From NCBI GenBank assembly GCA_016218545.1, contig JACRDQ010000030.1, forward strand, positions 256,172-320,171: a stretch of DNA of 64,000 bases, written 5' to 3'. The stretch comes from Elusimicrobiota bacterium. GTDB taxonomy: Bacteria; Elusimicrobiota; Elusimicrobia; UBA1565; UBA9628. The translations under genes and the position numbers were made by a program. The notes beneath the pieces were generated by a model. It did not search any database. It was given only the letters and a program-made list of their open reading frames with translations, and had not been told where the DNA came from. Below, in pieces: positions 6,603-35,857 of this stretch. Numbering within the stretch: position 1 is the first letter of the stretch; every line of letters starts with the position of its first letter.

Positions 6603-7295
6603 ATGGACTTCTCAAAGCCGCTCTCCATGACCCCTGAAGGACTCGGTCCGCACGCGCACGCCGCCCTCATCCACCTCTCCCGCCAGGAACAGCTCTCCTT
6701 CGTCGTGCCCTATCACCGCTCAGGGCTCGAGCGCGGGGAGAAGTGCGTCTGTGTGGCCGACGCCGACGGCGTCGAGGCCCTGTGGGCCGCCTTGAGGGCC
6801 GCCGGGGTCGACGCGGCCGGGGCCCTGGCCAAGGGGCAGCTCGCGAGCCTCTCCCCCGAGGAGGTCTACCTGAAGGACGGCCGCTTCGACCCTGCCCCGA
6901 CCTTGGCCGTGTTTCGGGGAGCCATCGAGGAGGCTCGCCGGCAGGGGTTCTCCGGGCTGCGGGTTTCCGCGGACATGACCTGGTCCTGCGGCGGGGCCGC
7001 GGCCATGCCGCTCCTGGCGGACTACGAGGCCGAGGTCAACCGCCTCTTCGAGGACCACCCCTTCGGCGCGGTCTGCCAATACGAATACGGCCGCTTCTCC
7101 GCGGACGCCCTGACCAGGGTCGTCTATACCCACCCCTTGGTGATCTTCGGCGGCAGGGTGCACTGGAACCCCTTCTTCATCCCGCCGAACGAGTACCTCA
7201 GGCCGCGGGACCCCGACGCGGAGCTCACGCGCGTGCTGAGCATGCTCTGCCGGGCGTCCTCCATGCGGGAGCGGCCCGTCCCCGTCGTCGTCTGA
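6603..7295 (+). CDS. MEDS-domain-like sensory protein (hypothetical)
   Basis: AGGAGG RBS before the ATG at 6603. Resembles the MEDS/DcmR sensory domain (conserved LSFVVPYH..E region). First gene of a signalling operon. Confidence 0.55.
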   Translation: MDFSKPLSMTPEGLGPHAHAALIHLSRQEQLSFVVPYHRSGLERGEKCVCVADADGVEALWAALRAAGVDAAGALAKGQLASLSPEEVYLKDGRFDPAPTLAVFRGAIEEARRQGFSGLRVSADMTWSCGGAAAMPLLADYEAEVNRLFEDHPFGAVCQYEYGRFSADALTRVVYTHPLVIFGGRVHWNPFFIPPNEYLRPRDPDAELTRVLSMLCRASSMRERPVPVVV

Positions 7296-7314
7296 CGGTC
7301 GGGCCCCCCCGCCG

Positions 7315-8064
7315 ATGAGTTATAATGGAAGGGTGACCCCTGGCAAGGCCGACACGAGCGGGCAGGAGGGGATCCGCTATAAGATCCTGACGGTGGATGA
7401 CGACGCCGAGTGCCTCTCCATGCTGCGGGTCTGCCTGAGCCGAGCCGGCCACACGGTGCTGGCCGCGCGCTCCGCCCGCGAAGCCCTGCTGGCCGCTGTG
7501 GACTCCGGTCCGGACCTCGTCATCTCGGACGTCCAGATGGCGGGCGATGACGGCTTCGAGCTCTCGCGCCGCCTCAAGGCCGGCCCCGCGACCGCGCGCA
7601 TCCCCATCATCCTCCTGTCCGGCGCCAGCAAGGATGTCCGGGACCAGCTCGAGGGCTTCGGCCTCGGGGTCGACGACTATCTGATCAAGCCTTTCGAGCC
7701 GGCCCTCCTCCTGGCCAAGGTCCACGCGGTCCTGCGGCGCTACGCCGTCGCCGAGGAGCTGCGGGACGTGGTGAAGTCCAGGGGCGTGGAGCTCGACGTG
7801 CAGGCGCGCACCGTGTCCTGCTCGGGGTCCCCGGTCGCGCTCAGCCGCAAGGAGTTCGACCTGCTCATCACCCTCATCCGCAAGCGGGGCCATGTCTTGA
7901 GCCCGTCGTTCCTCCTGGAATCGGTCTGGAGCCAGGACCTCGCGGAATACAACGATCCGCGCACGGTGAAGGTCCACATCTCGTCCCTGCGAAAGAAGCT
8001 GCCGCCCGCCGTGGCGCGGCGCATCATGACCGTGCCCGGCTCCGGCTACCGCTTCGACGCCTAG
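7315..8064 (+). CDS. OmpR-family two-component response regulator (REC + winged-helix DNA-binding)
   Basis: Receiver motifs ILTVDDD, DLVISDVQMAGDDGFEL, IPIILLSGA. C-terminal wHTH (VELDVQARTVSCSGSPVALSRKEFDLLITL ... VHISSLRKKL). Exact start uncertain. Confidence 0.88.
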   Translation: MSYNGRVTPGKADTSGQEGIRYKILTVDDDAECLSMLRVCLSRAGHTVLAARSAREALLAAVDSGPDLVISDVQMAGDDGFELSRRLKAGPATARIPIILLSGASKDVRDQLEGFGLGVDDYLIKPFEPALLLAKVHAVLRRYAVAEELRDVVKSRGVELDVQARTVSCSGSPVALSRKEFDLLITLIRKRGHVLSPSFLLESVWSQDLAEYNDPRTVKVHISSLRKKLPPAVARRIMTVPGSGYRFDA

Positions 8065-8170
8065 GCGCCGGCGGGCTTCTGCCGTCGACCGCGTCCCTGG
8101 CTTGACCTTTTTTTTACCGCCATCCGGCACACTATGATTGGGGACGGCGGACGTCGCGCCGTACGATGCC

Positions 8171-10285
8171 ATGGAAGAAGACAAGAACAAGAAACTGGCC
8201 TTACGCATCGCCTCGTTGTTGGACGACGTCTCGGAAACGCCGGAGCCCCGGGGCTCCGGCGCTCCGAGCCAGCCGGTCATCTCGCTGAGACCCGCCGTGG
8301 TGGAGGCCCTCCCCGCGGGCGCGGATCTCGGCTCTCCCGCGGTCCAGGCCCCTTCCGAGGTCCTGGCCTCGCCCGAGGTCGGGTCCGCTGTGATGGATAT
8401 CCTGCCCATCTGGGCTGACCCCGACTTTCCTGCGGAGCAGGCCGTGCCCGCGCCGGCCGAAGGGGCCGCGGCCAGCGCGGCCCCCAAGAGGTCCGTGCTG
8501 GTGGTCGACGATGACCGGGACTACCGGCGGATGGTCCGGGCCCTGCTTTCCGGCAACGGCTATGACGTCTACGAGGCCGAGGATGGGCGCCGGGCTCTGC
8601 AGTTGATCGCGCTGCACCGTCCGGACCTGGTGCTCGTGGACTTCAACATGCCGCGGATGAACGGCTACGAGATGATCCAGGAGGTGCGGAGCCGGTTCGA
8701 GACCCGCGCCATTCCGATCATCATGTTCACCGGCGCTTCCAACCGGAGCCACCTGCGGAGCCTGGGCATGGCTATCTCGGATTTCCTGGAGAAGCCGGTG
8801 TCCAATGTCAGGCTGCTGGAGAGCATCTCCAGCGTGCTCGGCGCGGAGCCGTCTCCCGAGCTCATGGGAGCGGAGTCCGCCCCGTCTCCCCGGATCGTTG
8901 CGCCGCCGAAGGCTCCGGAGACGACGCCGTCCCCGAAAGTCGTCGCAGCCGAAACCATGGCTGAGAAGCCTCCGGCGGCGCCGGCGGAGCCCGCTCCGAC
9001 GGGCCTGCCGCCGGAGCCGCTCGAAGAAGGGGACGAGGACGGGACCGAGCTCCTGCAGATCGAGGAGGAGAAGAAGGAGGAGGAGAGGCAGGAGGTCATC
9101 AGCCTCGAGCACCAGGCCAATGAGTCCCCGGTCATCAGCCAGGTGAACCGCATCCTCGTCAAGGCCGTGGGGATGCGCGCCTCCGACATCCACATCGAGC
9201 CTCAGGAGAAGCACATCACGGTCCGCGTGAGGGTCGACGGCACTCTCAAGCTCCTGTGCACCCTGCCCCTCTCCATCCATCCCCGCCTGAGCGCCCGCAT
9301 CAAGATCATGTCCAGCCTGGTCATCACGGAGAGACGCCTTCCCCAGGACGGGCAGTTCAAGACCCAGATCAGGGGCAGCCGGGTCGAGTTCCGGGTGAGC
9401 ACGCTCCCGTGCCTGCACGGCGAGAAGATCGTCATGCGCATCTTGGGCACCAGCAAGCTCAACGCCGATCTGGCCCAGATGAGCCTCCGTCCCCGCGACC
9501 TGGGCTGCGTGGAGAGGGCGCTCAGGACCCCTCACGGCCTCATCCTCGTGACCGGCCCCACCGGGAGCGGCAAGACCACCACCCTCTACACCATGATCAG
9601 CGTCCTCAACAAGCCCGAAGTCAACATCCTGACCGCCGAGGACCCCGTGGAGTACGAGGTGCCGGACATCTCGCAGGTCAAGGTCCTGCCGTCCATCGGC
9701 CTGACCTTCGAGTCCGCTCTGCGGGCCTTCCTGAGGCAGGACCCGGACATCATGCTCATCGGCGAGATCCGCGACCTGGAGACGGCCAACATCGCGGTCA
9801 AGGCCTCTATCACCGGACACCTGGTCTTCTCCACCCTGCATACCAACGGCGCCGTCGCCACCGTGACGAGGCTCGTCCACATGGGGGTGGCGCCCTATCT
9901 CGTCGCGGCCAGCGTCAAGCTCGTGGCGGCCCAGCGCCTGGTCCGGGACCTCTGCCCGTCCTGCAAGGTCCCCGGCGAGGTCTCCGACGACGAGAAGAAG
10001 TTCCTCGCGGAGGAGGAGGTCGCCAGGCTCCGATCCGTCTGGCGGAGCGCGGGGTGTCCCGCCTGCCATCAGACGGGGTACTCGGGGCGCTCGGCCCTCT
10101 TCGAGATCATGCCCCTGGACTCGGCGGCCATGCGCCAGCTCATCTGCGCCGGAGACAAGGCGGAGGAGCTCAACCGTCTGGCCCTTGCGGAGGGCATGAC
10201 CACCCTGCGGCAAGCCGCCTTGGAGGCGGTGGCGCGGGGCACGACCTCGTTGAGCGAGGCGCTCAAGGTCATGCTGGGGGGATGA
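8171..10285 (+). CDS. Response-regulator receiver fused to a GspE/PilB-family secretion ATPase
   Basis: REC domain (VLVVDDDRDY ... DLVLVDFNMPRMNGYEM ... IPIIMFTGA). Pro/Ala-rich linker. GspE N2 domain, Walker A GPTGSGKTT, and a C-terminal tetracysteine motif CPSC...CPAC. ATG at 8171; TTG at 8138 is an alternative. Confidence 0.85.
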   Translation: MEEDKNKKLALRIASLLDDVSETPEPRGSGAPSQPVISLRPAVVEALPAGADLGSPAVQAPSEVLASPEVGSAVMDILPIWADPDFPAEQAVPAPAEGAAASAAPKRSVLVVDDDRDYRRMVRALLSGNGYDVYEAEDGRRALQLIALHRPDLVLVDFNMPRMNGYEMIQEVRSRFETRAIPIIMFTGASNRSHLRSLGMAISDFLEKPVSNVRLLESISSVLGAEPSPELMGAESAPSPRIVAPPKAPETTPSPKVVAAETMAEKPPAAPAEPAPTGLPPEPLEEGDEDGTELLQIEEEKKEEERQEVISLEHQANESPVISQVNRILVKAVGMRASDIHIEPQEKHITVRVRVDGTLKLLCTLPLSIHPRLSARIKIMSSLVITERRLPQDGQFKTQIRGSRVEFRVSTLPCLHGEKIVMRILGTSKLNADLAQMSLRPRDLGCVERALRTPHGLILVTGPTGSGKTTTLYTMISVLNKPEVNILTAEDPVEYEVPDISQVKVLPSIGLTFESALRAFLRQDPDIMLIGEIRDLETANIAVKASITGHLVFSTLHTNGAVATVTRLVHMGVAPYLVAASVKLVAAQRLVRDLCPSCKVPGEVSDDEKKFLAEEEVARLRSVWRSAGCPACHQTGYSGRSALFEIMPLDSAAMRQLICAGDKAEELNRLALAEGMTTLRQAALEAVARGTTSLSEALKVMLGG

Positions 10286-10286
10286 T

Positions 10287-11048
10287 ATGCCCGGCATGCC
10301 GTTGGTCGAGGCCTTTCGGGGCGACCTCACGACCCAGGAGCTCTGTCGTCGGGGACGCCTCAAGCTCAGGCGTTTCGATCCTCCCGGCTACGCGGAGGCC
10401 GTCGCCTTCTTCTCGGACGCGCGGGAAGGCGATCCGGAGTGCGCGGTCTCCGTGGCCGCCCTGGCCGAAGCCTACTCGCACTGGGGTTTCGCGAGGAAGC
10501 TCATAGGGCAGGAGAGCGAGAGCTATTTCCTCCTGGCTTTCGAGAACGCCTGCTTGGCGCTGGAGATGGCCCCTGAACTCGCCGAGACGCACCGGGCCAT
10601 GGCCGTCTGCCTGAGGCACCGGCCGCGCCGCGGCCCCGAGCAGGGACTCGCCGAGGCGTCGGCAGCGGTGAGGATCAACCCTTACGACGCCATGTCCTGC
10701 TACGAGCTCTGGCGGGCGATGGGCCATGACCCCGAGTCACCCATGATCCACAAGGCCCTGGCGCTCGATCCCGCGCTGCTGACCGTCAACAATGACCTGG
10801 CGGTGTCGCTCATGGAAGCGGAGCGCGCCCAAGAGGCCGGCTTCCATCTGCGCCAGTGCCTGCGGGTCAATTACGAGAACGCGGTGGCCCGATACAACAT
10901 GGTCCTGCTCCTCGCCTGCCGCGGCAAGACCGAGCAGGCGCAGACCCTGCTCGAGGCCTGGCTGAAGGGGCCCGATTTCGAGCCGCTGGTGCGCAGCGGG
11001 AACGCGTCGCTGGCTGACCCGCGCTCCACGGGGGGGATCCTCTTATGA
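10287..11048 (+). CDS. TPR-like repeat hypothetical protein
   Basis: Start is adjacent to the upstream stop. Helical repeat (TPR-like) composition. Stop overlaps the kinase start at 11045. Confidence 0.6.
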   Translation: MPGMPLVEAFRGDLTTQELCRRGRLKLRRFDPPGYAEAVAFFSDAREGDPECAVSVAALAEAYSHWGFARKLIGQESESYFLLAFENACLALEMAPELAETHRAMAVCLRHRPRRGPEQGLAEASAAVRINPYDAMSCYELWRAMGHDPESPMIHKALALDPALLTVNNDLAVSLMEAERAQEAGFHLRQCLRVNYENAVARYNMVLLLACRGKTEQAQTLLEAWLKGPDFEPLVRSGNASLADPRSTGGILL

Positions 11049-13216
11049 ATCGCTTCCAATCTCCGAGCCAAGATGCCGGGGGCAAGACGCCCGATCAACT
11101 CGGCGCAGAGTTCGTCCTCGAGTTGGGAAGGGCCGTCAAGGTCGTGTCCCTGTACTACGCGAACCACCCGACCGCCCTTCAGACCCTCCGGCAAGTCCAC
11201 GCCATCCTGGAGCGGCTGTTGACCGGCCTTTCCGCGGGGCGCGTCACCTTCTCCCTGGCGGCCGGACGCTGGCTCAGGGATGGTTCCCCCCTGCCTGCCC
11301 CGGGTCCGGGCGCGGACTCCCTGCTCGGCGTGTTCGAGACCCACTCCATCGAGAGCCTCACCTTCCTGGGAGGCATCAGGCCCTTCGAGCTGGTCGCTCT
11401 GGCCGAGGTCGCGGCTTCCGTCCCGACGCGTCCGGGCCGCGCCGCGCTCCAGGAGTTCCTCCAGCAGAGAGGAGTGACCCACATCAAAGCGGACATCGAG
11501 CACTATTCCAAGGAGTCGGCTCCGCAGGGCTCGGACGGTTCCCTGGCGTCCGGCTTGCCGGCCGCCTCCTCGTCCGCTGCCAAGCCCCCTGTCGCGCCTT
11601 CCGTTCTCAGGCCTGCCGCGCCTGCGCCCGCTGGCAAGCCTTCAGCGCCTGCGTCCGCTGCCAAGCCCTCCGCGCCTGCGCCCGCTGGCAAGCCTTCGTC
11701 GCCTGCGCCCGCTGCCAAGCCCTCCGCGCCTGCGCCCGCTGGCAAGCCTTCGTCGCCTGCGCCCGCTGCCAAGCCCTCCGCGCCTGCGTCTGCTGCCAAG
11801 CTTGCCGCGCCGTCGCCTTCGGTCGCTCACAGCGTCCCGGCGCAGCCTCCCAAGCCGGCTCTCCCGCCCGTAGAGGTCCGTGCCTCCGCGGCCGGGATGT
11901 GGGGCCCGCCGTCGAGCCCTGCTCCCGACTCTCACGGGGACAGGCTTGGCGTCAGTTTCGGCAGCGTGCTTCGCAAGCTCGTGGAGACCGCGGTGCAGGA
12001 TCCCGACGAGAGGTCCCACATCTACGAGGACGTGGTGGCCATGGTCAAGGAGACCTTGGACCGCCACGTCGACCAGGCGACGCAGGCGCTCTCGGAGGAG
12101 AAGGCGCGCATCGTCAGGCAGGCCGCCAGGACCGAACGGGTGCTCACCACGGTGGCGGACGGAAAGTTCACCGTGGATAAAGAGGGAAGGGTCCTCATGA
12201 TGAACGCCAGCGCCGAGATGATCACGGGAAAGCGTCTGGCCGACCTCGCGGGCAAGCACATCACCGAGGGCGTCAAGGAGGGGGAGCACATGGTCGCGCT
12301 CGCCGAGGACCTGGCGTCCCCGGCCGTGGACGGAGCAGGGGTCACGGTCGTGGCCGATGAGGCGGTGGGCGGCGCCATGCGCCGCTCCCTGGCCCTGGTC
12401 CGAGACGACGCGGGCCGCGTGGTCGGCACGTACGCCTCCCTCCCCGACGCCGCCAAGTTCAAGGAAGCCCAGCGCCTGCAGGAGGAGTTCCTCTCCCGGG
12501 TGACGCACGACCTCCAGTCCCCGCTGGCCGCCATCTGCAGCGGACTCGAGCTCCTCGCGGACAAGGTCAGCTCCGTGGGCGGTCCCGAGACGGCCCAGTA
12601 CATCGACATCTGCATGCGCAACAGCCGTCACCTCTCGGGGATGATCCGCGAGATCCTCGATTTCTCGAAGCTCGACTCGGGCAAGATGACGGTGCACCCG
12701 GCCCCTGTCTCGGCCTCAAGCCTCCTCAAGGAGGCGGTGGAGAGCCTCCAGCCCTGGGCCAAGACCAGGAAGCTCCGCCTGGAAGCGCGTTCTGCCCACG
12801 CGGATTTCTCGGTGCTGGCGGACCAGCCGCGCGTCGTCCAGGTGCTGACCAACCTCATCTCGAACGCGGTCAAGTCCACAAAGGAAGGGGGCTCGATCAC
12901 CGTGGCGGCGGTCCCGGCAGCGGAGGACGGGCAGGGGATCTTCGCGGTGAAGGACACGGGGAGCGGGATCTCCCCTGAGGACCTCGGCCGCATCTTCGAG
13001 AAGTTCGTCCAGGTCGGGGACGGCCGCAGGGACGGGGTGGGACTCGGGCTTTCCATCGTCCAGGAGTTCGTCCGATTGCACGGCGGCGCGGTCTGGGCCG
13101 AGAGCGAGCCCGGCAAGGGTTCGGTGTTCTACTTCACGCTCCCCTTGTCGCAAGCCGGAGTCATCGGCCCCGCGGCGCAGGAGGTCCTGCCGCCTTCGGG
13201 GCGGCCCCGGCACTGA
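11045..13216 (+). CDS. Sensor histidine kinase (N-terminal unknown domain, Pro/Ala-rich tandem-repeat linker, PAS, HisKA, HATPase_c)
   Basis: H-box HDLQSPLAAI. N/G boxes NLISNAVKST, VKDTGSGIS, GLGLSIV. PAS-like segment DGKFTVDKEGRVLMMNASAEMITG. Confidence 0.88.
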   Translation: MNRFQSPSQDAGGKTPDQLGAEFVLELGRAVKVVSLYYANHPTALQTLRQVHAILERLLTGLSAGRVTFSLAAGRWLRDGSPLPAPGPGADSLLGVFETHSIESLTFLGGIRPFELVALAEVAASVPTRPGRAALQEFLQQRGVTHIKADIEHYSKESAPQGSDGSLASGLPAASSSAAKPPVAPSVLRPAAPAPAGKPSAPASAAKPSAPAPAGKPSSPAPAAKPSAPAPAGKPSSPAPAAKPSAPASAAKLAAPSPSVAHSVPAQPPKPALPPVEVRASAAGMWGPPSSPAPDSHGDRLGVSFGSVLRKLVETAVQDPDERSHIYEDVVAMVKETLDRHVDQATQALSEEKARIVRQAARTERVLTTVADGKFTVDKEGRVLMMNASAEMITGKRLADLAGKHITEGVKEGEHMVALAEDLASPAVDGAGVTVVADEAVGGAMRRSLALVRDDAGRVVGTYASLPDAAKFKEAQRLQEEFLSRVTHDLQSPLAAICSGLELLADKVSSVGGPETAQYIDICMRNSRHLSGMIREILDFSKLDSGKMTVHPAPVSASSLLKEAVESLQPWAKTRKLRLEARSAHADFSVLADQPRVVQVLTNLISNAVKSTKEGGSITVAAVPAAEDGQGIFAVKDTGSGISPEDLGRIFEKFVQVGDGRRDGVGLGLSIVQEFVRLHGGAVWAESEPGKGSVFYFTLPLSQAGVIGPAAQEVLPPSGRPRH
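11610..11800 (+). repeat. About three copies of a 60-nt tandem repeat inside the kinase gene, encoding P-A-P-A-G-K-P-S-(S/A)-P-A-(P/S)-A-A-K-P-S-A
   Basis: Near-identical 60-nt units are visible at 11612-11800 (gcctgcgcccgctggcaagccttc.tcgcctgcg.ccgctgccaagccctccgc). Confidence 0.8.
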
Positions 13217-15839: not shown

Positions 15840-16805
15840 GTGCCGACCCGAACGCAGACGACGACCAGCCTCGAGGCTTCCCTGGGACGGGTGCGCGCAG
15901 GCATGCAAGCCCGCGCCAAGCGCATCTCCGGCCGCGTGGGCTCCGCCCTGGCCGAGCACGTGTCCCGGCCGGGCAAGATGCTCCGGGCGAGGTTCGCGGT
16001 CCAGGTCGGGGCCGCCCTCGGGGTGGCGCCGGGAAAGACCGAGACGGTCGCCCGCGCCATGGAGCTGGCGCACAACGCCTCTCTCCTCCACGACGATTGC
16101 GTCGACGACGCCTCCCTGCGTCGGGGCCTGCCCACGCCCAACAGCGTCTACGGCTCGACCGTGGCGCTCCTCCTGGGGGACATCGCCTTCACCCAGTCGC
16201 TCGAGGAGGCGCTCGAACTCGGCCCCAAGGCCGTGGAGCGCCTCGTGAGCGCGGCGCGCGAGATGGCCATCGGCGAGCTCCAGGAGGAGTTCCTGCGCGG
16301 CTCCGTGGACGTGACCCTCGAGTCCTACATGGGGGTCGCGGCGCGCAAGACCGGGGCCCTCTTCGAGTGGGGCGGCTTGACGCTCTCGGACCTAAGCCCC
16401 CTCGAGCACGCGGCCGCCGACCCCGCCAGGCTGGGCTCGGCGCTCGGCATCCTCCTGCAGATGGTCGACGACATCCACGACTACACCCTGACGGACGCCG
16501 TGGCCGGCAAGGAGCGGGCCAAGGACGCCAAGATCGGGCGCGTGACCCTTCCCGGGGTCTTTGCGCTCGCGGACGCCTCCCGCCGGGGGCGCTTCCTCGA
16601 GTTGTGGGCCGCGCTGCGCCGGGACCCGCGCGCCGCCTCGGACCTGGCGCGCTTCCTCGACGAGAGCGGGTCGCTCGACGAGGCCCGCGCCGAGTGCCGC
16701 AAGGTGGTCGGGACCATCCTCGAGCTGACCCGGCGCCTGCCGGTCCGGGGAGAGGTCGACGAGGTGGCCGAGTTCGTCTCGGCCATGGCCGAGAGGGAAT
16801 TCTGA
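15840..16805 (+). CDS. trans-Polyprenyl diphosphate synthase (IspA/IspB family)
   Basis: First Asp-rich motif LLHDDCVDDASLRRG and second motif QMVDDIHDY. GTG start at 15840; an ATG at M22 (15903) is an alternative. Confidence 0.85.
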   Translation: MPTRTQTTTSLEASLGRVRAGMQARAKRISGRVGSALAEHVSRPGKMLRARFAVQVGAALGVAPGKTETVARAMELAHNASLLHDDCVDDASLRRGLPTPNSVYGSTVALLLGDIAFTQSLEEALELGPKAVERLVSAAREMAIGELQEEFLRGSVDVTLESYMGVAARKTGALFEWGGLTLSDLSPLEHAAADPARLGSALGILLQMVDDIHDYTLTDAVAGKERAKDAKIGRVTLPGVFALADASRRGRFLELWAALRRDPRAASDLARFLDESGSLDEARAECRKVVGTILELTRRLPVRGEVDEVAEFVSAMAEREF

Positions 16806-17254
16806 TGGGCTACGCCGACCTCATCCGGCGGGCCTGGCGGACCGGGCGCTTCGCCGCCTCGGTCCGGTCGTCCGGGAAGAAGGGCGCCGCGGGCGTCCGT
16901 CCCGGGGAGAGCCGCGGCTCCATCCGCGGCGAGATGGAAGAGATCGTCCGCCGCGAGTCCGCCGACGCGCTCGGCTTCCTCGCGCCGCGCGGGGAGGGAA
17001 TCATGAAGCTCGCACCGTTCGTGAAATTCCGTGAAGAGAAGTTCGGCGCGGTCCTGTTCGAGACCCGTTCCGAGAAGGTGTTCACCCTCAATCCGACGGC
17101 CGCGGACGTGGTGCGGGAGCTCCTCGCCGGCGCCTCGGAGGGCGAGATCGGAGAGCGCCTCAAGGGCCGCTACAGCGACCCCTCGGGCAGGCTCGCCGAC
17201 GAGGCCAAGGCCCTCGTGCGCCAGCTCCGCGACAAGGGGCTCATCGCGGACTAG
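16805..17254 (+). CDS. PqqD-family RiPP recognition element protein with a 66-aa N-terminal extension
   Basis: The PqqD-like domain spans residues 67-149 (MKLAPFVKFREEKFGAVLFETRSEKVFTLNPTAADVVRELLAGASEGEIGERLKGRYSDPSGRLADEAKALVRQLRDKGLI). ATG at 16805 is coupled to the upstream stop (TGATG) and the frame has high GC3 throughout. An internal ATG at 17003 carries its own strong GGGAGGGA RBS. Confidence 0.75.
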   Translation: MGYADLIRRAWRTGRFAASVRSSGKKGAAGVRPGESRGSIRGEMEEIVRRESADALGFLAPRGEGIMKLAPFVKFREEKFGAVLFETRSEKVFTLNPTAADVVRELLAGASEGEIGERLKGRYSDPSGRLADEAKALVRQLRDKGLIAD

Positions 17255-17255
17255 C

Positions 17256-18254
17256 ATGGCTTCGAGGAAGGACGCGGTCAAGGCCGGAGGCCGGGCGTCC
17301 CGGGCGCCCTTGGAAGAGGCGTTGGCGCCCGGGATGCGGGCGCCGCTCTACATCGGCTGGCAGCTGACCAATGCCTGCGACCTGGCGTGCGTCCACTGCA
17401 TCGAGGAGTCCGGGCCGGGCCGCGCCTTCAAGGACGAGCTGACCCGGGAGCAGGCCTTCCGTATCCTCGAGCAGATCAAGACCGAGCAGGTGCCCTACGT
17501 CGCCTTCTCCGGGGGCGAGCCCTTCCTCCACCCGCACTTCCTGGAACTGGCCGCGTTCCTCGGAGACGCCGGGGTGTCGCTCAAGGTCGAGACCAACGGC
17601 CGCCACCTCACCGAGGCGGCCGCCTCGGCGCTGCGGGACCACGGAGTCCGGGCCGTGCAGGTCAGCCTCGACGGCGCCACCCCCGAGGCCTACCGCAAGG
17701 TGCGGCCCTCCGGCGACCACGCCCGGGTCCTGGCAGGCATCCGCCTCCTGCGCTCCAGGGGCGTGGAGGTGGAGGTCAACTTCGTCCCGACGCGGCACAA
17801 CGTCCATGAGATCGGAGCCGCCGTGGACCTGGCCTTCAGCGAGGGGGTCTCCGGCTTCTACACGGGCAGGCTCATCCTGGCCGGCCACGCCGCCAAGGCG
17901 CGGGACCTGGCCCCGACCCAGGAGCAGTACGACGCCTTCTTCGCGTGCCTCAAGGCCAAGGCCCAGGAGTACAAGGGCCGCATGACCGTGCGCTATCACG
18001 AGCTGGGCATCGCGCAGGAGGTCCGCTACCGCATGGCCAACCCCGCGGCCCTCTTCGTCATCCTGCCCGACGGCAGGGTGAAGCTCCTCAACGCCCTGCC
18101 GTTCGTGTGCGGCGACCTGCGCGAGCAGAGCCTCACCGAGGTCTGGAAGGCCTTCCTCGCGGGCTGGAAGTCGCCGCGGGTGGCCGACTTCGTCGGCCGC
18201 CTGGAGGCCGACCCCGGGCTCCTGCAAGGACTGCACCGATGGATCCCTTTGTGA
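17256..18254 (+). CDS. Radical SAM enzyme 1 (SPASM/twitch-subfamily-like, peptide-modifying type)
   Basis: WQLTNACDLACVHC is the CxxxCxxC motif. GGEP motif AFSGGEPFL. Few cysteines in the C-terminal domain. Begins 2 nt after the PqqD-like stop. Confidence 0.85.
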   Translation: MASRKDAVKAGGRASRAPLEEALAPGMRAPLYIGWQLTNACDLACVHCIEESGPGRAFKDELTREQAFRILEQIKTEQVPYVAFSGGEPFLHPHFLELAAFLGDAGVSLKVETNGRHLTEAAASALRDHGVRAVQVSLDGATPEAYRKVRPSGDHARVLAGIRLLRSRGVEVEVNFVPTRHNVHEIGAAVDLAFSEGVSGFYTGRLILAGHAAKARDLAPTQEQYDAFFACLKAKAQEYKGRMTVRYHELGIAQEVRYRMANPAALFVILPDGRVKLLNALPFVCGDLREQSLTEVWKAFLAGWKSPRVADFVGRLEADPGLLQGLHRWIPL

Positions 18255-19198
18255 CCGAGTCCGGCGTGGAGACCGACGGCCGCGCCGCTCCGGCCCGCGG
18301 CGGCGGGAGCGGGCGGCCGAATCTGGCCCTGCGGATGGCGTCTGCGGTGCGCTACCGCTTCTTCCTGTACGCGGGACTCCTCCCGTACTTCCTCGGCGCG
18401 GCCTGGGCCCTGCGCATGGAGGGAGCCTTCGCGCCCGGCCGCTTCTGGCTGGGCCTGCTGGGCATCGGCCTGTCCGTCGTGGGTGTTGAGTCCTTCAACG
18501 AGTACTTCGACGCGCGCATGGGCACGGACCGCGTCTTCAACCCTTCCGACGACGAGTACATCCCCGCCTGGATGCTCTGGCTGGGGGTCGCGGCGTTCGC
18601 GGCCGCGGCGTGCGTGGGCATGGCCCTGGCCCATGCCGGAGGCTGGCCCATCCTCCTCTACATGGGGCTGGGCGGCATGGCCGCGGCCTTCTACGTGGGC
18701 CCGCCTTTCCGCTGGGCCTACCTGGGCCTCGGCGAGACCTCGATCGCCTTGTCCTACGGGCCCTGGATGACCCTGGGCAGCATCCACCTGCACACGGGCG
18801 CTTTCTCCTGGCGCGGCCTGGCGGCCGCGCTCGTGCCCGGCTTGCTGGTGGCGTCGCTCGCCGTGGTCAACGAGATCCCGGATTTCCACCAGGACCGGCT
18901 CGTGGGCAAGCGCAACCTCGTGGTGCGGCTGGGCCGCAGGAACGGGGTCGCCCTGTACCTCGCCCTGGCCGGGGCGGGCTTGGCCGCGTGCTTCGCAGGC
19001 GCGGCCGCGGGCTGGTTCCCGGTCGCGTGCGGCCTGGCCGGGGCCCTGGGCCTGCCGTGCTGGTTCTCGAGCGCTCGGACCGCGGTCAAGGCGTGGGACA
19101 CGCCGCGGCTTTTCGTGCCCGCGGTGCGGGACATCGTGCAGTGCTATCTCGTGACCGTGAGCGCCTTCATCATGGCGCTCGCCGTGAGGCTGCCGTGA
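18239..19198 (+). CDS. UbiA-superfamily membrane prenyltransferase, MenA-like
   Basis: Asp-rich motifs NEYFDARMGTD (E. coli MenA: NDYGDAVKGID) and NEIPDFHQDRLVGKRN. About 8 TM helices. Overlaps the radical-SAM 1 end by 16 nt. Confidence 0.82.
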   Translation: MDPFVTESGVETDGRAAPARGGGSGRPNLALRMASAVRYRFFLYAGLLPYFLGAAWALRMEGAFAPGRFWLGLLGIGLSVVGVESFNEYFDARMGTDRVFNPSDDEYIPAWMLWLGVAAFAAAACVGMALAHAGGWPILLYMGLGGMAAAFYVGPPFRWAYLGLGETSIALSYGPWMTLGSIHLHTGAFSWRGLAAALVPGLLVASLAVVNEIPDFHQDRLVGKRNLVVRLGRRNGVALYLALAGAGLAACFAGAAAGWFPVACGLAGALGLPCWFSSARTAVKAWDTPRLFVPAVRDIVQCYLVTVSAFIMALAVRLP

Positions 19199-20109
19199 GG
19201 ATCGCGTCCTTCGACGTTCCCCTGGCCGCTGCCTGGCGCCTGACCGACCGGTGCGACCTCTCCTGCCGGCACTGCCTCAACGCTTCCGGGCCCAAGGCTG
19301 ACACGGCCGCCGAGCTCTCCCGGCCCGAGGCTCTCAAGCTGGCCCGGAGCATCGGCTCAGCCCAGGTCCCCTACGTCATCCTCTGCGGGGGCGAGCCCAT
19401 GCTGAGCCCCGACTTCTGGCAGGCGGCCGAGACCCTGGGCGAGGCAGGCGCGTGGCTCAAGGTGGAGACGCACGGCCAGAACCTCGGGCGCACCCAGGCG
19501 GAGCGCCTGGCCAAGCTCCCCATCCGCTCGGTCCAGGTCTCTCTCGACGGGGTCACCCAGCAGGCTTACGAGTCCCTGCGGCCAGGGGCCTCCCTGGCCA
19601 AGACCTTGGAAGCTTGCCGCGAGGTGCGGCGTCAAGGCATGCCCCTCGAGATCTCCTTCGTCCCGGTCCAGGGCAACATCCACGAGGCTCCGGCGGTCAT
19701 CGACCTGGCCCTGGACCTGGGCGCCTTCCGGTTCAACACCGGGACCCTCATCAAGCGCGGCCGCGCCGCAGCCGCTTGGAAGAAGCTCCTTCCTGATGCC
19801 GAGTCCATGGCAGGCTTGCTCGCGGTCCTCACCCGTCGCGAAGCCACCCTGGCCGGGAGGCTCGAGCTCTGCTTCAGGCCTTTCAATTTCGAAGACCAGG
19901 TCCGCGCCGAACGCGCGGAGCCCTCAGGCACGCTCACGATCCTGCCTGACGGCAAGGTCCCTGTCTCGGCCTCCTCGGACGTCGTCTGCGCCGACCTTCG
20001 GACGCAGACGGTCAGGGAGGCCTGGCGCGCTTACTTGGCGGCGCACGGCAAGGGGCCACGATCGGAAAGATGGGTCGGCTCGTGTCTTGAGCCGGCTACC
20101 CGGTCCTAG
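19195..20109 (+). CDS. Radical SAM enzyme 2 (paralog of 1 and 3)
   Basis: GTG start overlaps the prenyltransferase stop (GTGA). AWRLTDRCDLSCRHC and CGGEPML motifs. Confidence 0.8.
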   Translation: MRIASFDVPLAAAWRLTDRCDLSCRHCLNASGPKADTAAELSRPEALKLARSIGSAQVPYVILCGGEPMLSPDFWQAAETLGEAGAWLKVETHGQNLGRTQAERLAKLPIRSVQVSLDGVTQQAYESLRPGASLAKTLEACREVRRQGMPLEISFVPVQGNIHEAPAVIDLALDLGAFRFNTGTLIKRGRAAAAWKKLLPDAESMAGLLAVLTRREATLAGRLELCFRPFNFEDQVRAERAEPSGTLTILPDGKVPVSASSDVVCADLRTQTVREAWRAYLAAHGKGPRSERWVGSCLEPATRS

Positions 20110-20129
20110 GCCGGGATTTAGGAGACAGC

Positions 20130-20255
20130 ATGAGAGACAAGAAGAACGTGACGGATGGAAAGGCGAAGGCCGACAAGAAGCCCGTGTGGCAGACCCCTTC
20201 TCTCGAAGAGGTCACCGAGCGTGTCATGGCCCAGCCGTACATCAGGTTCACGTGA
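20130..20255 (+). CDS. Candidate RiPP precursor peptide, 41 aa: MRDKKNVTDGKAKADKKPVWQTPSLEEVTERVMAQPYIRFT
   Basis: Absent from the ORF track because it is under 60 aa. AGGAGA RBS 4-5 nt before the ATG. Sits 20 nt after radical-SAM 2 and its stop overlaps the GTG of radical-SAM 3. Lys-rich leader, lower GC. Shares KKP, LE(E)VT and Y-I features with PqqA. Confidence 0.65.
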   Translation: MRDKKNVTDGKAKADKKPVWQTPSLEEVTERVMAQPYIRFT

Positions 20256-21226
20256 CGCACCCGAGGGGGGCGGCGGTAGGAGACTACCGCGCCCCCCTCT
20301 TTGTCGCGTGGCAACTCACCAACCGCTGCCGCGGCCGCTGCCTGGCCTGCTGCGAGGAATCCGGTCCGGGCAAGGGAATCCGCCAAGGCGGGTCCTGGCA
20401 GGCTGAGCTCACCAAGCAGGAAGCCCTCCGCGTCAGCCGCGACATCGCGGCCTCCGGGGTCTCCTACGTGGCGTTCGGCGGGGGGGAACCCATGGAGGTG
20501 CCGCACTTCTGGGACATCCTCTCCATCCTCTCCAAGGGCGGGGTCCGCATCAAGATCGAGACCAACGGCGGGACCATCGGCCGCTCCCAGGCCAAGCGCC
20601 TCTCCGCCTTGGGCGTGTCCTCCATCCAGATCAGCCTCGACGGCCCCACGGCCCGCGAGCACGAGGCCTTGAGGCCCGGCTCGAGCTTCAACAAAGCGGT
20701 CCGGGCGGTCCGCTGTCTGGCTGAGGAAGGGCTCGGGCCTGAGGTCGTGTTCATCCCCATGAAGAGGAACGTGGGCCAGGCCGTCAAGGTCTACCGATTG
20801 GCGGCCAGTCTCGGAGCCAGGGTGCTTGCGACCGGCCCTCTCATGCGCCTGGGACGCGCCGGAGCAGCATGGAAGGAACTCGCCCCGTCGGCCGGGCGAT
20901 GGCGGACCGCGGTCCGGGCGCTCAAGGCCGAGGCCGCCCGTGCCAAGGCAGGGCCCAAGCTCTCCATCTATCCCTGGGGCATCCAGAGGGAGATCGAGAC
21001 CAGGCTCGAGCATCCCCAGGCCATGGTCCTCGTGGTGCCTGACGGCAAGGTCAAGCTCCTCAATGCCCTCCCTTTTGCTCCAGGCGACCTGCGGCGACAC
21101 TCCCTGGCCCAGGCCTGGACGCGCTGCCTCGGAGCTTGGCGCGACCCCAAGGTGCGGGCTTTCTGCCGCAAGGCCGTGAAGGACCCCGGGCTCCTGGCGC
21201 ACGCCAACGAATGCTGGCCCGCCTAA
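20252..21226 (+). CDS. Radical SAM enzyme 3 (paralog of 1 and 2)
   Basis: YRAPLFVAWQLTNRCRGRCLAC aligns to the radical-SAM 1 N-terminus. FGGGEPM motif. GTG start overlaps the peptide stop. Confidence 0.82.
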   Translation: MTHPRGAAVGDYRAPLFVAWQLTNRCRGRCLACCEESGPGKGIRQGGSWQAELTKQEALRVSRDIAASGVSYVAFGGGEPMEVPHFWDILSILSKGGVRIKIETNGGTIGRSQAKRLSALGVSSIQISLDGPTAREHEALRPGSSFNKAVRAVRCLAEEGLGPEVVFIPMKRNVGQAVKVYRLAASLGARVLATGPLMRLGRAGAAWKELAPSAGRWRTAVRALKAEAARAKAGPKLSIYPWGIQREIETRLEHPQAMVLVVPDGKVKLLNALPFAPGDLRRHSLAQAWTRCLGAWRDPKVRAFCRKAVKDPGLLAHANECWPA

Positions 21227-34010: not shown

Positions 34011-34754
34011 ATGTTCCAGAGCACGTCGTCCGTCCTCATCATCCTCGTGGTCGCGGCGTTCCTGTCCATCAAGCTGGTCAATGAGTACGACCGGGTGGTG
34101 GTCTTCGTCCTGGGCCGGCTCTGGAAGGTCTGCGGCCCCGGGCCCATCATCGTGGTGCCCGGCATCATGCGCGGCCAGCTGGTGAGCCTCCGGACCGTGG
34201 TCCTCGACGTGCCCCCGCAGGACGTCATCACCAAGGACAACGTCTCCATCAAGGTCAACGCCGTCGTCTATCTGCGGGTGGTGGACGCGCAGCGGGCGGT
34301 CATCCAGGTGGAGAACTACCTCTATGCCACGAGCCAGTGGGCGCAGACGACCCTGCGCTCGATCCTGGGCAAGTCCGAGGTCGACGAGATCCTGGCGCAC
34401 CGCGACAAGATCAACAACGAGCTCCAGCAGATCCTCGACGCCCACACCGAGCCGTGGGGCGTGAAGGTCTCCAACGTCGAGATCAAGAACGTGGACTTCG
34501 CGCAGGAGATGCTGCGCGCCATGGCCAAGCAGGCCGAGGCCGAGCGCGAGCGCCGCGCCAAGGTCATCCACGCGGAAGGCGAGCTCCAGGCCTCCGAGAA
34601 GCTGGGACAGGCCGCCAAGGTCCTGTCGGCCGACCCGGCCTCCATCCAGCTCCGGTACCTGCAGACGCTCTCTGAGATCGCGATCGACAAGAACTCCACC
34701 ACCATCTTCCCGGTGCCGGTGGACGTGATCTCGATGTTCGTCAAGAAGACTTGA
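34011..34754 (+). CDS. SPFH/Band-7 (stomatin/HflK/C-like) membrane protein
   Basis: GGAGGT RBS. N-terminal TM. SPFH core [12 protein letters not shown]...[16 protein letters not shown]. Coiled-coil tail. Confidence 0.88.
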
Positions 34755-35857
34755 GCGACGCCGGGCTGTACGTCCACGTCCCGTTCTGCTCGGGGAAGTG
34801 CTCCTATTGCGACTTCGTCTCCTTCCCCGGCAGGGCGGCGTCGGTCCCAGGGTACCTGAAGGCCCTCGAGGCTGAGGCGGGGCTGCGGCCTGCCGCGCGT
34901 CCTGAGACCCTCTACGTGGGCGGGGGCACGCCCACGGAGCTCTCGGCGGAGGACCTGGCCGCGCTCCTGGGGTCGGTCCGGCGGTCGTACCCCGGCCCTG
35001 TCTTCGAGGAGGCCACGGTCGAGGCCAATCCCGAGAGCCTCACGCCTGAGAAGGCCGCGGCCTTGAGGGAGGGCGGGGTCACCCGCCTGAGCCTGGGACT
35101 GCAGACCACGGACGATCGTCTCCTCGAGCGCATCGGCAGGAGACACCGCTTCTCCGACGCGGTCCGAGCCTTCCGGCTCGGCCGGGACGCGGGCTTCGAC
35201 ATGAGCGTGGACCTCATGTTCGGCCTTCCGGGCCAGACCCTGGAGGGCCTGGAGCGGAGCCTCTCTACAGTGCTGGCCATGCGGCCGGAGCACCTGTCGG
35301 TCTACGGGCTCGACGTGCACGAGGACACGCCCTTCGGCCGGGAGGGCGTGGTCCACGACGAGGACCTGGGACGCGCCATGTTCGAGCTCGTCATCGTCCG
35401 CGCGAGAGCCGCGGGCTACCACCACTACGAGATCTCGAACTTCGCCCTGCCCGGGCGCGAGTGCCGCCACAACATGCTCTATTGGAGGAACGAGGACTAC
35501 CTCGGCCTGGGCCCGGCCGCGGTCTCCCATCAGGACGGAGAGCGCTCCACGAACTCCCCGGGCTTGGACGAGTACCGTTCCGGCGTCCTCGCGGGCAGGC
35601 GGCCCCTGGCCCATGCCGAGCGCCTGGAGGGCAAGGAGAAGCTGGGCGAGACGGCGATGCTGGGCTTGAGGCTCCTCGACGGCGCGGAGCTCGGGCCCGA
35701 GCTCGAGGAGGCGTTCGCCCGGGAGCTTGAGTCCCTGGCGGAGCGCGGCCTCATCCTGCGCGATGGGAGGAGGACGAGGCTCTCCTCCGAGGGGCTCTTC
35801 ATGGCCAACGTCGTGGCGTCCGAGTTCGTCGCGCCGTTCGCGGAGGCGGCATGCTAG
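34751..35857 (+). CDS. hemW: Radical SAM heme chaperone HemW (HemN-like coproporphyrinogen III oxidase family)
   Basis: [17 protein letters not shown] radical-SAM motif, GGGTPT, HemN C-terminal domain. TTG start overlaps the upstream stop. Confidence 0.88.

Follow-up and report, generated by a model that had tools for sequence, protein, structure and literature searches.

This study concerns a short open reading frame (ORF) in a 64,000-nucleotide stretch of DNA from an Elusimicrobiota bacterium; the whole stretch is referred to as the window, and coordinates are window positions unless another locus is named. The ORF comprises 41 codons, is initiated by ATG and occupies 20130-20255 on the + strand (translation MRDKKNVTDGKAKADKKPVWQTPSLEEVTERVMAQPYIRFT). 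It is flanked by the second and third of three genes whose products belong to the radical-SAM (S-adenosylmethionine) type, radical-SAM 2 ending at 20109 and radical-SAM 3 beginning at 20252, and a frame plot places both in frames that differ from that of the peptide. A preliminary description had presented the ORF as the gene of an unannotated precursor peptide with similarity to PqqA, and the local features on which it relied were recovered from the sequence. A Shine-Dalgarno-like AGGAGA (20120-20125, +) was read 4 nt 5′ of the ATG, and the TGA stop codon (20253-20255) overlaps the GTG at 20252 that starts radical-SAM 3, whose frame encodes ...YRAPLFVAWQLTNRCRGRCLACC, a radical-SAM N-terminus. 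The ORF is also locally AT-richer, with 57% GC compared with 69-71% for its neighbours and the operon and 70% for the window. The term "unannotated" held for the most part: among 5.8 billion predicted proteins there are 12 clusters of homologous peptides, and the sole source names read "hypothetical protein".

Members of these 12 clusters are 29-44 aa long, with variable N-termini and identical C-terminal halves. Conservation in the loci of relatives, which the preliminary description had proposed as a check, was found on a much larger scale in nucleotide data. A pattern scan using one genome per species detected homologous small ORFs in 96 species-representative genomes, from which 80 loci were kept; nearly all of these derive from metagenome-assembled genomes (MAGs) labelled Elusimicrobia or Elusimicrobiota, with a few labelled just "bacterium". 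Scanning of metagenomes yielded more than 550 confirmed peptide loci on contigs, and a profile search of 1.84 billion representative proteins returned 97 peptide clusters at 50% identity. Most of the latter end in IRFT, the few exceptions looking truncated or misread, and the tyrosine of the C-terminal motif is replaced by phenylalanine in a few and by cysteine in one. Total homologue length ranges from ~30 to 78 aa. Comparison of the 12 protein clusters with the 96 species genomes and >550 metagenomic contigs indicates that most annotations have overlooked the gene. Four database entries (P0196, P0220, P0228 and P0229) have the peptide fused to neighbouring frames or running past the core, likely reflecting frameshifts or wrongly called starts.

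The pattern of variation at codon level demonstrates that 20130-20255 is a real gene under protein-level selection. In 83 core regions examined (the window and fetched loci) the peptide ends in VMAQPYIRFT followed directly by a stop codon. Across 66 distinct DNA versions of this core the residues are unchanged while third codon positions vary freely, the core alanine being encoded by GCG (17), GCC (28), GCT (19) or GCA (2) and the proline by all four of its codons; because the amino acids are fixed in the face of synonymous variation, it is the protein that is under selection and not an element of the RNA or DNA. Of 147 distinct copies, 146 have a Shine-Dalgarno-like motif ahead of a candidate ATG, compared with 31 of the 147 random controls. 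Spurious ORFs are abundant in high-GC genomes, and the frame might on that ground have been a chance opening, or a conserved non-coding element, in the spacer between radical-SAM 2 and radical-SAM 3. The fixed residues beside free third positions, the conserved position of the stop codon, the near-universal Shine-Dalgarno-like site and the persistence of the peptide sequence when its place differs between two gene architectures (below) have already refuted this explanation, and we give it practically no weight. The preliminary description had also recognized that a longer, conserved N-terminus of radical-SAM 3 could render the peptide frame non-coding. Homologues of radical-SAM 3 start 13-16 residues before an APLF motif, several of them after the stop codon of the peptide; thus no conserved longer N-terminus overprints the peptide frame, and that alternative is ruled out.

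The peptide is organized like a precursor, as had been proposed: its N-terminus varies, the recognition-like motif that follows is conserved and the core at the C-terminus is invariant. The Lys-rich N-terminal part (residues 1-19, 20130-20186, +) differs widely in length and sequence among homologues. It is followed by a leader-like motif, W-x-x-P-x-(L/M/I)-E-(D/E)-V-(S/T) (residues 20-29, 20187-20216, +), presumed to be the binding site of a PqqD-family protein, and by the core ERVMAQPYIRFT with its stop codon (residues 30-41, 20217-20255, +), which contains the near-invariant MAQP(Y/F)IRFT and is the presumed site of modification. The MAQP(Y/F)IRFT-stop motif was found in 173 distinct variants from several phyla, and residue conservation was counted over their 173 distinct 24-residue C-termini using window numbering. 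In the leader-like motif, Trp20 is kept in 168 of 173, Pro23 in 170, an acidic residue at position 27 in 171 (Asp in 125, Glu in 46), Val28 in 172 and Ser/Thr29 in all 173. In the core, Met33 is kept in 169, Ala34 in 172, Gln35 in 171, Pro36 in 173 and Tyr37 in 167 (Phe in 5, Cys in 1). The final I-R-F-T was demanded by the search pattern that collected these variants, so its invariance within the set is not independent and rests instead on the profile-search hits. Of the Trp, Glu and Tyr positions that had been named for checking, those of Trp and Tyr are thus highly conserved; the residue four before the tyrosine, where PqqA has its glutamate, is Met (169/173), and the near-invariant acidic residue lies ten residues before the tyrosine, within the leader-like motif.

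The peptide gene belongs to a + strand operon that was resolved by a codon-position GC plot and is followed by a convergent gene at 21223. Its first gene encodes a polyprenyl diphosphate synthase (IPPS; 15840-16805, +; alternative start ATG 15903; PF00348, 139 bits) that retains both DDxxD motifs and for which the best NCBIfam matches are long-chain synthases. Alanine and serine at positions -5 and -4 before the first DDxxD are invariant in 58 orthologues, and in Elusimicrobiota loci the gene keeps its place. Long-chain synthases have small residues ahead of that motif, and by this chain-length rule the Ala/Ser pair suggests a medium- or long-chain product.

The second gene (16805-17254, +) encodes a PqqD-family peptide chaperone, that is, a recognition element (RRE) of the kind that serves peptides made by ribosomes and modified after translation (RiPPs). 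Its PF05402 match (45.8 bits, cutoff 23.4) covers a conserved domain at 17003-17254, preceded by a 66-residue N-terminal extension (16805-17002). The ATG of the gene overlaps the stop codon of the synthase, and the frame plot, coding from about 16800, is consistent with this start. Extended proteins of 146-149 aa were also found in other Elusimicrobiota (L001, L002 and L088), whereas the extension is absent from betaproteobacterial PqqD proteins (83 aa) and from those of the minimal cassettes described below (about 89-101 aa); the PqqD domain itself is present in every complete cassette. The fourth gene (18251-19198, +) encodes a prenyltransferase of the UbiA superfamily, most similar to MenA and UBIAD1 (PF01040, 56.7 bits, cutoff 34.2). 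Its best NCBIfam match is MenA (PRK06080.1-3, 102 bits against a cutoff of 264; TIGR00751, 63 against 102), its sole PDB sequence match is human UBIAD1, and 69 orthologues keep its Asp-rich motifs NEYFD and DFHQD...KRN almost without change. The enzyme looks competent and of quinone type, and a homolog is present in every complete cassette of both architectures.

The remaining genes encode the radical-SAM proteins, all matching PF04055: radical-SAM 1 (17256-18254, +, with its start uncertain between 17256, 17310 and 17334), radical-SAM 2 (19195-20109, +) and radical-SAM 3 (20252-21226, +). They are paralogues of 36-41% mutual identity. The CxxxCxxC motif occurs in 99-100% of the orthologues of all three (100% of 66 for radical-SAM 1), and each has one to four extra conserved cysteines. 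For radical-SAM 2, three further cysteines (positions 141, 226 and 265) are present in 86-96% of orthologues, and a fourth, position 28, is present in 92% and is Leu in the window. A cysteine census of orthologues did not find the 7-Cys SPASM motif in any of the three paralogues, nor did Pfam detect a SPASM domain. None of the three reaches an NCBIfam family cutoff; the best model is MftC (TIGR03962, 99-128 bits against 265), PqqE (TIGR02109) scores 54-87 bits against 381, and the WgkB and WgkC models match weakly. A protein identical to radical-SAM 3 is named "radical SAM protein [Elusimicrobia bacterium]" (P0013). In an AlphaFold2 model of radical-SAM 3 (mean predicted local distance difference test score 86.8) the nearest solved folds are SkfB, PqqE, in second place, and SuiB, all of them RiPP maturases. 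Taken together, a PqqD-like RRE, a CxxxCxxC motif on a maturase-type fold and a co-encoded short precursor with leader and core, the features by which the RRE-dependent radical-SAM class of RiPPs is recognized, are all found here, and the cassette enzymes are assigned, on sequence and predicted structure, to the RiPP-maturase type.

Two architectures of the system were distinguished, in which the peptide gene either adjoins radical-SAM 3 or stands first in the operon. About 80 Elusimicrobiota loci retain the order seen in the window (synthase, PqqD, radical-SAM 1, UbiA, radical-SAM 2, peptide, radical-SAM 3) as far as their contigs permit; their enzymes share ~50-60% identity with those of the window, and the peptide core is 100% identical. 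Homologues of radical-SAM 3 with 55-57% identity occur in Betaproteobacteria (strain GR16-43, Usitatibacter MAGs and one Burkholderiales MAG), where the cassette reads PqqD, radical-SAM, UbiA, radical-SAM, peptide, radical-SAM, without the synthase, and the peptides end in ...WETP(K/R)(L/M)EDVSE(Q/E)VMAQPYIRFT. The second, minimal layout consists of peptide, PqqD, one radical-SAM and UbiA, sometimes then a synthase, and accounts for 54 of the 80 metagenomic loci that were retrieved, out of the >550 confirmed. GC content of the minimal-type loci spans 32-69%, and close homologues of their radical-SAM protein are named Planctomycetota, Phycisphaerales, Lentisphaerota and Aminicenantia. Among the window paralogues, radical-SAM 1 is the one best matched by the minimal-type radical-SAM regions (41-47% identity, tblastn). 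The minimal-type family (P0230-P0349) has six well-conserved cysteines (58, 79, 86, 149, 207 and 273 of P0230) beside CxxxCxxCC, and the three window paralogues keep just subsets of the six, which hints at subfunctionalization or loss of an auxiliary cluster. The minimal, universal and obligatory gene set is therefore peptide, PqqD, radical-SAM and UbiA; the prenyltransferase is integral to the system rather than a passenger.

Some copies depart from these layouts. Orphan peptide copies, whose available flanks lack PqqD, radical-SAM and UbiA genes, were found at L078:906-1004, L103:9962-10075, L110:7038-7103 and L115:3687-3752; in MAG STD1_166 such an orphan (L078) coexists with a copy in a cassette (L035). 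At L008:10200-11760 an insertion of ~1.5 kb, which may be a mobile element, splits radical-SAM 3 after its first 27 codons, immediately 3′ of the peptide gene.

The genomic setting of the minimal cassette points to respiration. Frequently it lies within nqr operons, arranged as nqrABCDEF-peptide-PqqD-radical-SAM-UbiA or as nqrABCDE-peptide-PqqD-radical-SAM-UbiA-nqrF, with gaps of 0-30 nt or overlapping genes. An nqr gene was detected <400 nt upstream in 16 of 37 informative minimal-type loci, and in all five loci with nqrE upstream nqrF directly follows UbiA; in these the cassette is therefore inside the nqr operon. Among the Nqr proteins, NqrB is at its NCBIfam cutoff (349.9), while NqrA (198/450), NqrC (134/144), NqrE (221/247) and NqrF (274/295) have Nqr as their best match but score below it. 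The NqrA-like subunit of the cassette-carrying operons (L128:505-1929, and the nqr operons of L097, L105, L111, L132 and L142) has a C-terminal 2x[4Fe-4S] ferredoxin motif, RnfC-like in character, and matches RnfC models in addition to NqrA. The complex appears to be a divergent, NQR-like one because its NqrA carries this RnfC-like di-cluster motif, which suggests that the operons encode an NQR/RNF intermediate.

Other redox genes recur beside the cassette. All three betaproteobacterial loci adjoin genes of the MtrA/MtrB-PioB and NapC/NirT types with a cytochrome b close by, in differing gene order, and two of them (L084 and L087) include a molybdopterin oxidoreductase. Directly after UbiA in minimal-type loci are found a class I SAM methyltransferase (L153:12274-13071), an HdrC/B/A-like Fe-S/CCG set (L101:5075-8561) and a NapC/NirT multihaem cytochrome (L117:8799-10190), which may be further pathway members or redox partners; a molybdopterin enzyme is encoded divergently upstream of one Phe-variant peptide. 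Partners of this kind exchange electrons with membrane quinones.

The flanks of the Elusimicrobiota loci, including the window, are of housekeeping type. Beyond the closest relatives, the recurring neighbours are just purH, ligA and nusB on the downstream side (about 30 loci) and, upstream, a gene for an aminotransferase or of MarR type; the recurrent purH-ligA-nusB flank points to a vertically inherited core-genome locus. In the window the neighbours are housekeeping or signalling genes that give no functional clue. Among them, an upstream signalling cluster (6603-10285) contains genes for a protein with a MEDS domain, for a response regulator of the OmpR type and for a T2SSE/PilB-like ATPase that carries a fused receiver domain, and a histidine-kinase-like protein (11045-13216) has a long Pro/Ala/Lys-rich repetitive stretch (...PAPAGKPSAPASAAKPSAPAPAGKPSS...) in its N-terminal half. 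A fourth radical-SAM gene (34751-35857; PF04055, 92.7 bits) lies between a Band 7/SPFH gene and that of valyl-tRNA synthetase.

We propose, with a probability of roughly 55%, that translation of the ORF yields the precursor of a peptide-derived cofactor, one that is lipid-anchored, has not been described before and is linked to quinone-dependent respiration. A core that is invariant across phyla typifies cofactor precursors, such as those of PQQ and mycofactocin, rather than antibiotics, and the invariance of this core beside far more divergent enzymes follows the cofactor-precursor pattern. In this scheme the PqqD-family protein would bind the leader motif W-x-x-P-x-L-E-(D/E)-V-(S/T) and present the core (V/I)MAQP(Y/F)IRFT to the radical-SAM enzymes, three in the window and a single one in the simpler, more widespread version. 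Hydrogen abstraction by these enzymes would probably lead to a carbon-carbon cross-link involving the aromatic residue 37; one possibility is a (Y/F)-I-R cyclophane, as this triplet resembles cyclophane motifs. The MenA/UBIAD1-like UbiA protein would then attach a long polyprenyl chain, supplied by the polyprenyl diphosphate synthase of the cassette, as a membrane tether. The product might act as a quinone-like carrier or a bound lipid cofactor, working with the NQR-like NADH dehydrogenase, NapC/NirT cytochromes, cytochrome b and molybdoenzyme modules. A more specific form of the proposal, which we regard as speculative and put forward tentatively, is that the cassette yields a polyprenylated redox cofactor of ribosomal origin, amounting to a peptide-derived "quinone", for NQR-like and NapC/NirT-, Mto/Pio-type modules. 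It could serve as a membrane electron acceptor or as a bound cofactor of the divergent NQR-like NADH dehydrogenase, in anaerobic Planctomycetota, Lentisphaerota and Elusimicrobiota and in some Betaproteobacteria.

Several observations weigh against a lipid-anchored respiratory cofactor. Which residue is modified, how it is cross-linked and what accepts the prenyl group is conjecture throughout, and UbiA could act on a non-peptide substrate. The replacement of Tyr by Phe in some clades sits badly with a quinone derived from Tyr, and also with an electrophilic prenylation of the ring, and a free quinone head group would be hard to derive since neither a protease nor a hydroxylase nor a PqqB/C-like enzyme was found in the cassette. 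Neighbouring nqr genes are lacking in about half of the informative minimal-type loci. No nqr gene was found in the Elusimicrobiota flanks, the window included, so the respiratory link rests on other lineages and on guilt by association.

Some of the same features would fit a different division of labour, in which the peptide is a scaffold, carrier or assembly factor while the radical-SAM and UbiA enzymes build a non-peptide prenylated quinone. It might, for example, support a new route to a menaquinone-like head group on a PqqD-bound platform, or be a small maturation factor of an NQR-like complex. The MenA/UBIAD1-like character of UbiA, the methyltransferase that follows UbiA in L153 and mirrors the order MenA then MenG, the absence of a protease from the cassette, the tolerance of Phe for Tyr and the orphan peptide copies would all agree with such a role, for which peptide scaffolds in small-molecule biosynthesis (pearlins) provide a precedent. 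However, a C-terminus with ten invariant residues in a row and a PqqD partner marks a substrate that is modified, the radical-SAM enzyme is closest in structure to maturases that act on peptides, and the cassette has no aminoacyl-tRNA-dependent ligase of the kind used by known scaffold systems; on balance we hold a scaffold role, in either of these forms, to be unlikely. Less probable again is a secreted or membrane-active prenylated RiPP acting as an antimicrobial or signal instead of a cofactor. A short precursor with an RRE and radical-SAM enzymes follows RiPP logic, and prenylated RiPPs exist (cyanobactins and ComX), but the core is identical across several phyla while the enzymes fall to 40-60% identity, and bioactive cores normally vary. 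Moreover, no transporter, protease or immunity gene was found in the cassette, the neighbourhood in Elusimicrobiota is syntenic and housekeeping, other cassettes are embedded in nqr operons, and the prenyltransferase is of the membrane UbiA type, accompanied by a long-chain synthase, rather than a soluble ABBA or F-type enzyme.

The preliminary description had compared the peptide with PqqA. A further reading would make it a divergent PqqA or MftA whose cassette uses Glu-Tyr or Val-Tyr chemistry to produce PQQ, mycofactocin or some closely similar soluble compound. A PqqD protein and PqqE/MftC-like radical-SAM enzymes are indeed present, with MftC the best NCBIfam match, and a gapless alignment to Klebsiella PqqA matches the Trp, the Pro and the Tyr-Ile, both peptides having 22 residues from Trp to C-terminus. 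In this register, chosen post hoc from Trp to C-terminus, 16 of 20000 shuffles reach the score; the free-register comparison is not significant, 343 of 3000 shuffles doing so. Searches of Pfam and NCBIfam with the window peptide and three homologues gave no family match at E<=10 apart from one irrelevant match at 0.25; the PqqA and MftA profiles were without a match, and no Pfam or NCBIfam family describes the peptide. It has neither the E-x-x-x-Y of PqqA nor a C-terminal GVY. The PqqE and MftC scores given above are far below their equivalog cutoffs, and the same is true of PqqD (21 against 46) and MftB (TIGR03967, 24.6 against 33). In addition, none of the loci examined has pqqB, pqqC or pqqF, or mftD, mftE or mftF, in its cassette or flanks, the radical-SAM enzymes lack the 7-Cys SPASM motif, and a prenyltransferase is always present. 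This reading is already contradicted by the tests run, and we consider it very improbable. A specific kinship with PqqA is accordingly not supported, given the silence of the PqqA models, the non-significant free-register resemblance and the missing E-x-x-x-Y, and the gapless alignment is kept as no more than a lead. The Glu/Tyr cross-link that had been suggested fares no better: besides the Met at the position of the glutamate, the Phe and Cys variants of the tyrosine argue against a strictly Glu/Tyr quinone chemistry. What does hold is that the peptide belongs to a cassette of PqqD and radical-SAM proteins that includes a prenyltransferase as well, so that its chemistry follows a PQQ-like logic without being that of PQQ biogenesis. 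The description of a PqqA-like precursor thus fits the general class but not the details. To it the present analysis adds the wider distribution of the system, the simpler layout with one radical-SAM enzyme and the location of that layout in nqr operons.

The peptide defines an undescribed, widespread system of peptide, PqqD, radical-SAM and UbiA. No published description of it was found in the full-text literature searched, and neither an Elusimicrobia genomics paper (10.1101/765248) nor the RRE-Finder paper (PMC7470986) mentions it. To our knowledge, PQQ and mycofactocin are the only peptide-derived redox cofactors with pathways built by a PqqD chaperone and radical-SAM enzymes, and no RiPP or cofactor pathway described so far is known to us to employ a polyprenyltransferase of the UbiA family. 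If the lipid-anchored cofactor proposed here is real, it would represent a third family of peptide-derived redox cofactors and the first that is lipid-anchored, set apart by its integral quinone-type polyprenyltransferase and its embedding in NADH:quinone reductase operons, and it would involve a new enzymatic reaction, the UbiA-type polyprenylation of a ribosomal peptide. Should the product be a membrane electron carrier or an NQR cofactor, the reconstruction of respiration would change for many uncultured anaerobes, in which the lack of a quinone pathway is currently read as a lack of quinone-dependent respiration. The system is directly testable: the gene set is small, with four genes in the minimal version, and cultured hosts appear to exist, since strain GR16-43, whose genome is complete, carries the cassette and close homologues bear the label Usitatibacter.

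Of the known systems, that of PQQ is alike in its parts: a short peptide of ribosomal origin whose core is strongly conserved, a separate chaperone of the PqqD family and a PqqE-like radical-SAM enzyme. PqqA and the peptide also have in common a leader in which a hydrophobic and an acidic residue come after W-x-x-P, as well as a Tyr-Ile placed four residues from the C-terminus. In contrast to PQQ biogenesis, Met here occupies the position of the cross-linked Glu and the Tyr can be Phe, genes for PqqB, PqqC and PqqF and the 7-Cys SPASM motif are missing, and UbiA, often together with a polyprenyl synthase, is integral; the partners of PQQ are periplasmic dehydrogenases, whereas those indicated here are membrane respiratory complexes. 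In the mycofactocin system, as in the one proposed here, an RRE chaperone and a radical-SAM enzyme turn the invariant C-terminus of a peptide into a redox cofactor, and MftC is the best NCBIfam model for all radical-SAM enzymes of the cassette. The differences are that scores fall far under the family cutoffs, that the C-terminus is IRFT instead of the GVY of MftA, that MftD, MftE and MftF are missing, that prenylation would take the place of glycosylation, and that the link is to nqr operons and not to nicotinoprotein dehydrogenases.

Two further systems bear comparison. The cyclophane-forming radical-SAM maturases of RiPPs (triceptide enzymes such as XyeB, SuiB/StrB and WgkB) share an aromatic-X-basic (Y/F)-I-R in the core and a PqqD-type RRE; SuiB is among the nearest folds of radical-SAM 3, and the WgkB and WgkC models are weakly matched. 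Those enzymes have full SPASM domains and make variable natural products, whereas here the core, including its (Y/F)-I-R motif, is invariant, the SPASM cysteines are absent, no family model is reached and a membrane prenyltransferase is attached. MenA and UBIAD1 resemble the cassette UbiA in fold family, in both Asp-rich motifs, in being its best sequence matches and in the pairing with a long-chain-type polyprenyl diphosphate synthase. The cassette UbiA differs in scoring under every MenA equivalog cutoff and in always accompanying PqqD, radical-SAM and peptide genes, never men or mqn genes, in the loci studied here, and its acceptor is presumed to be derived from the peptide.

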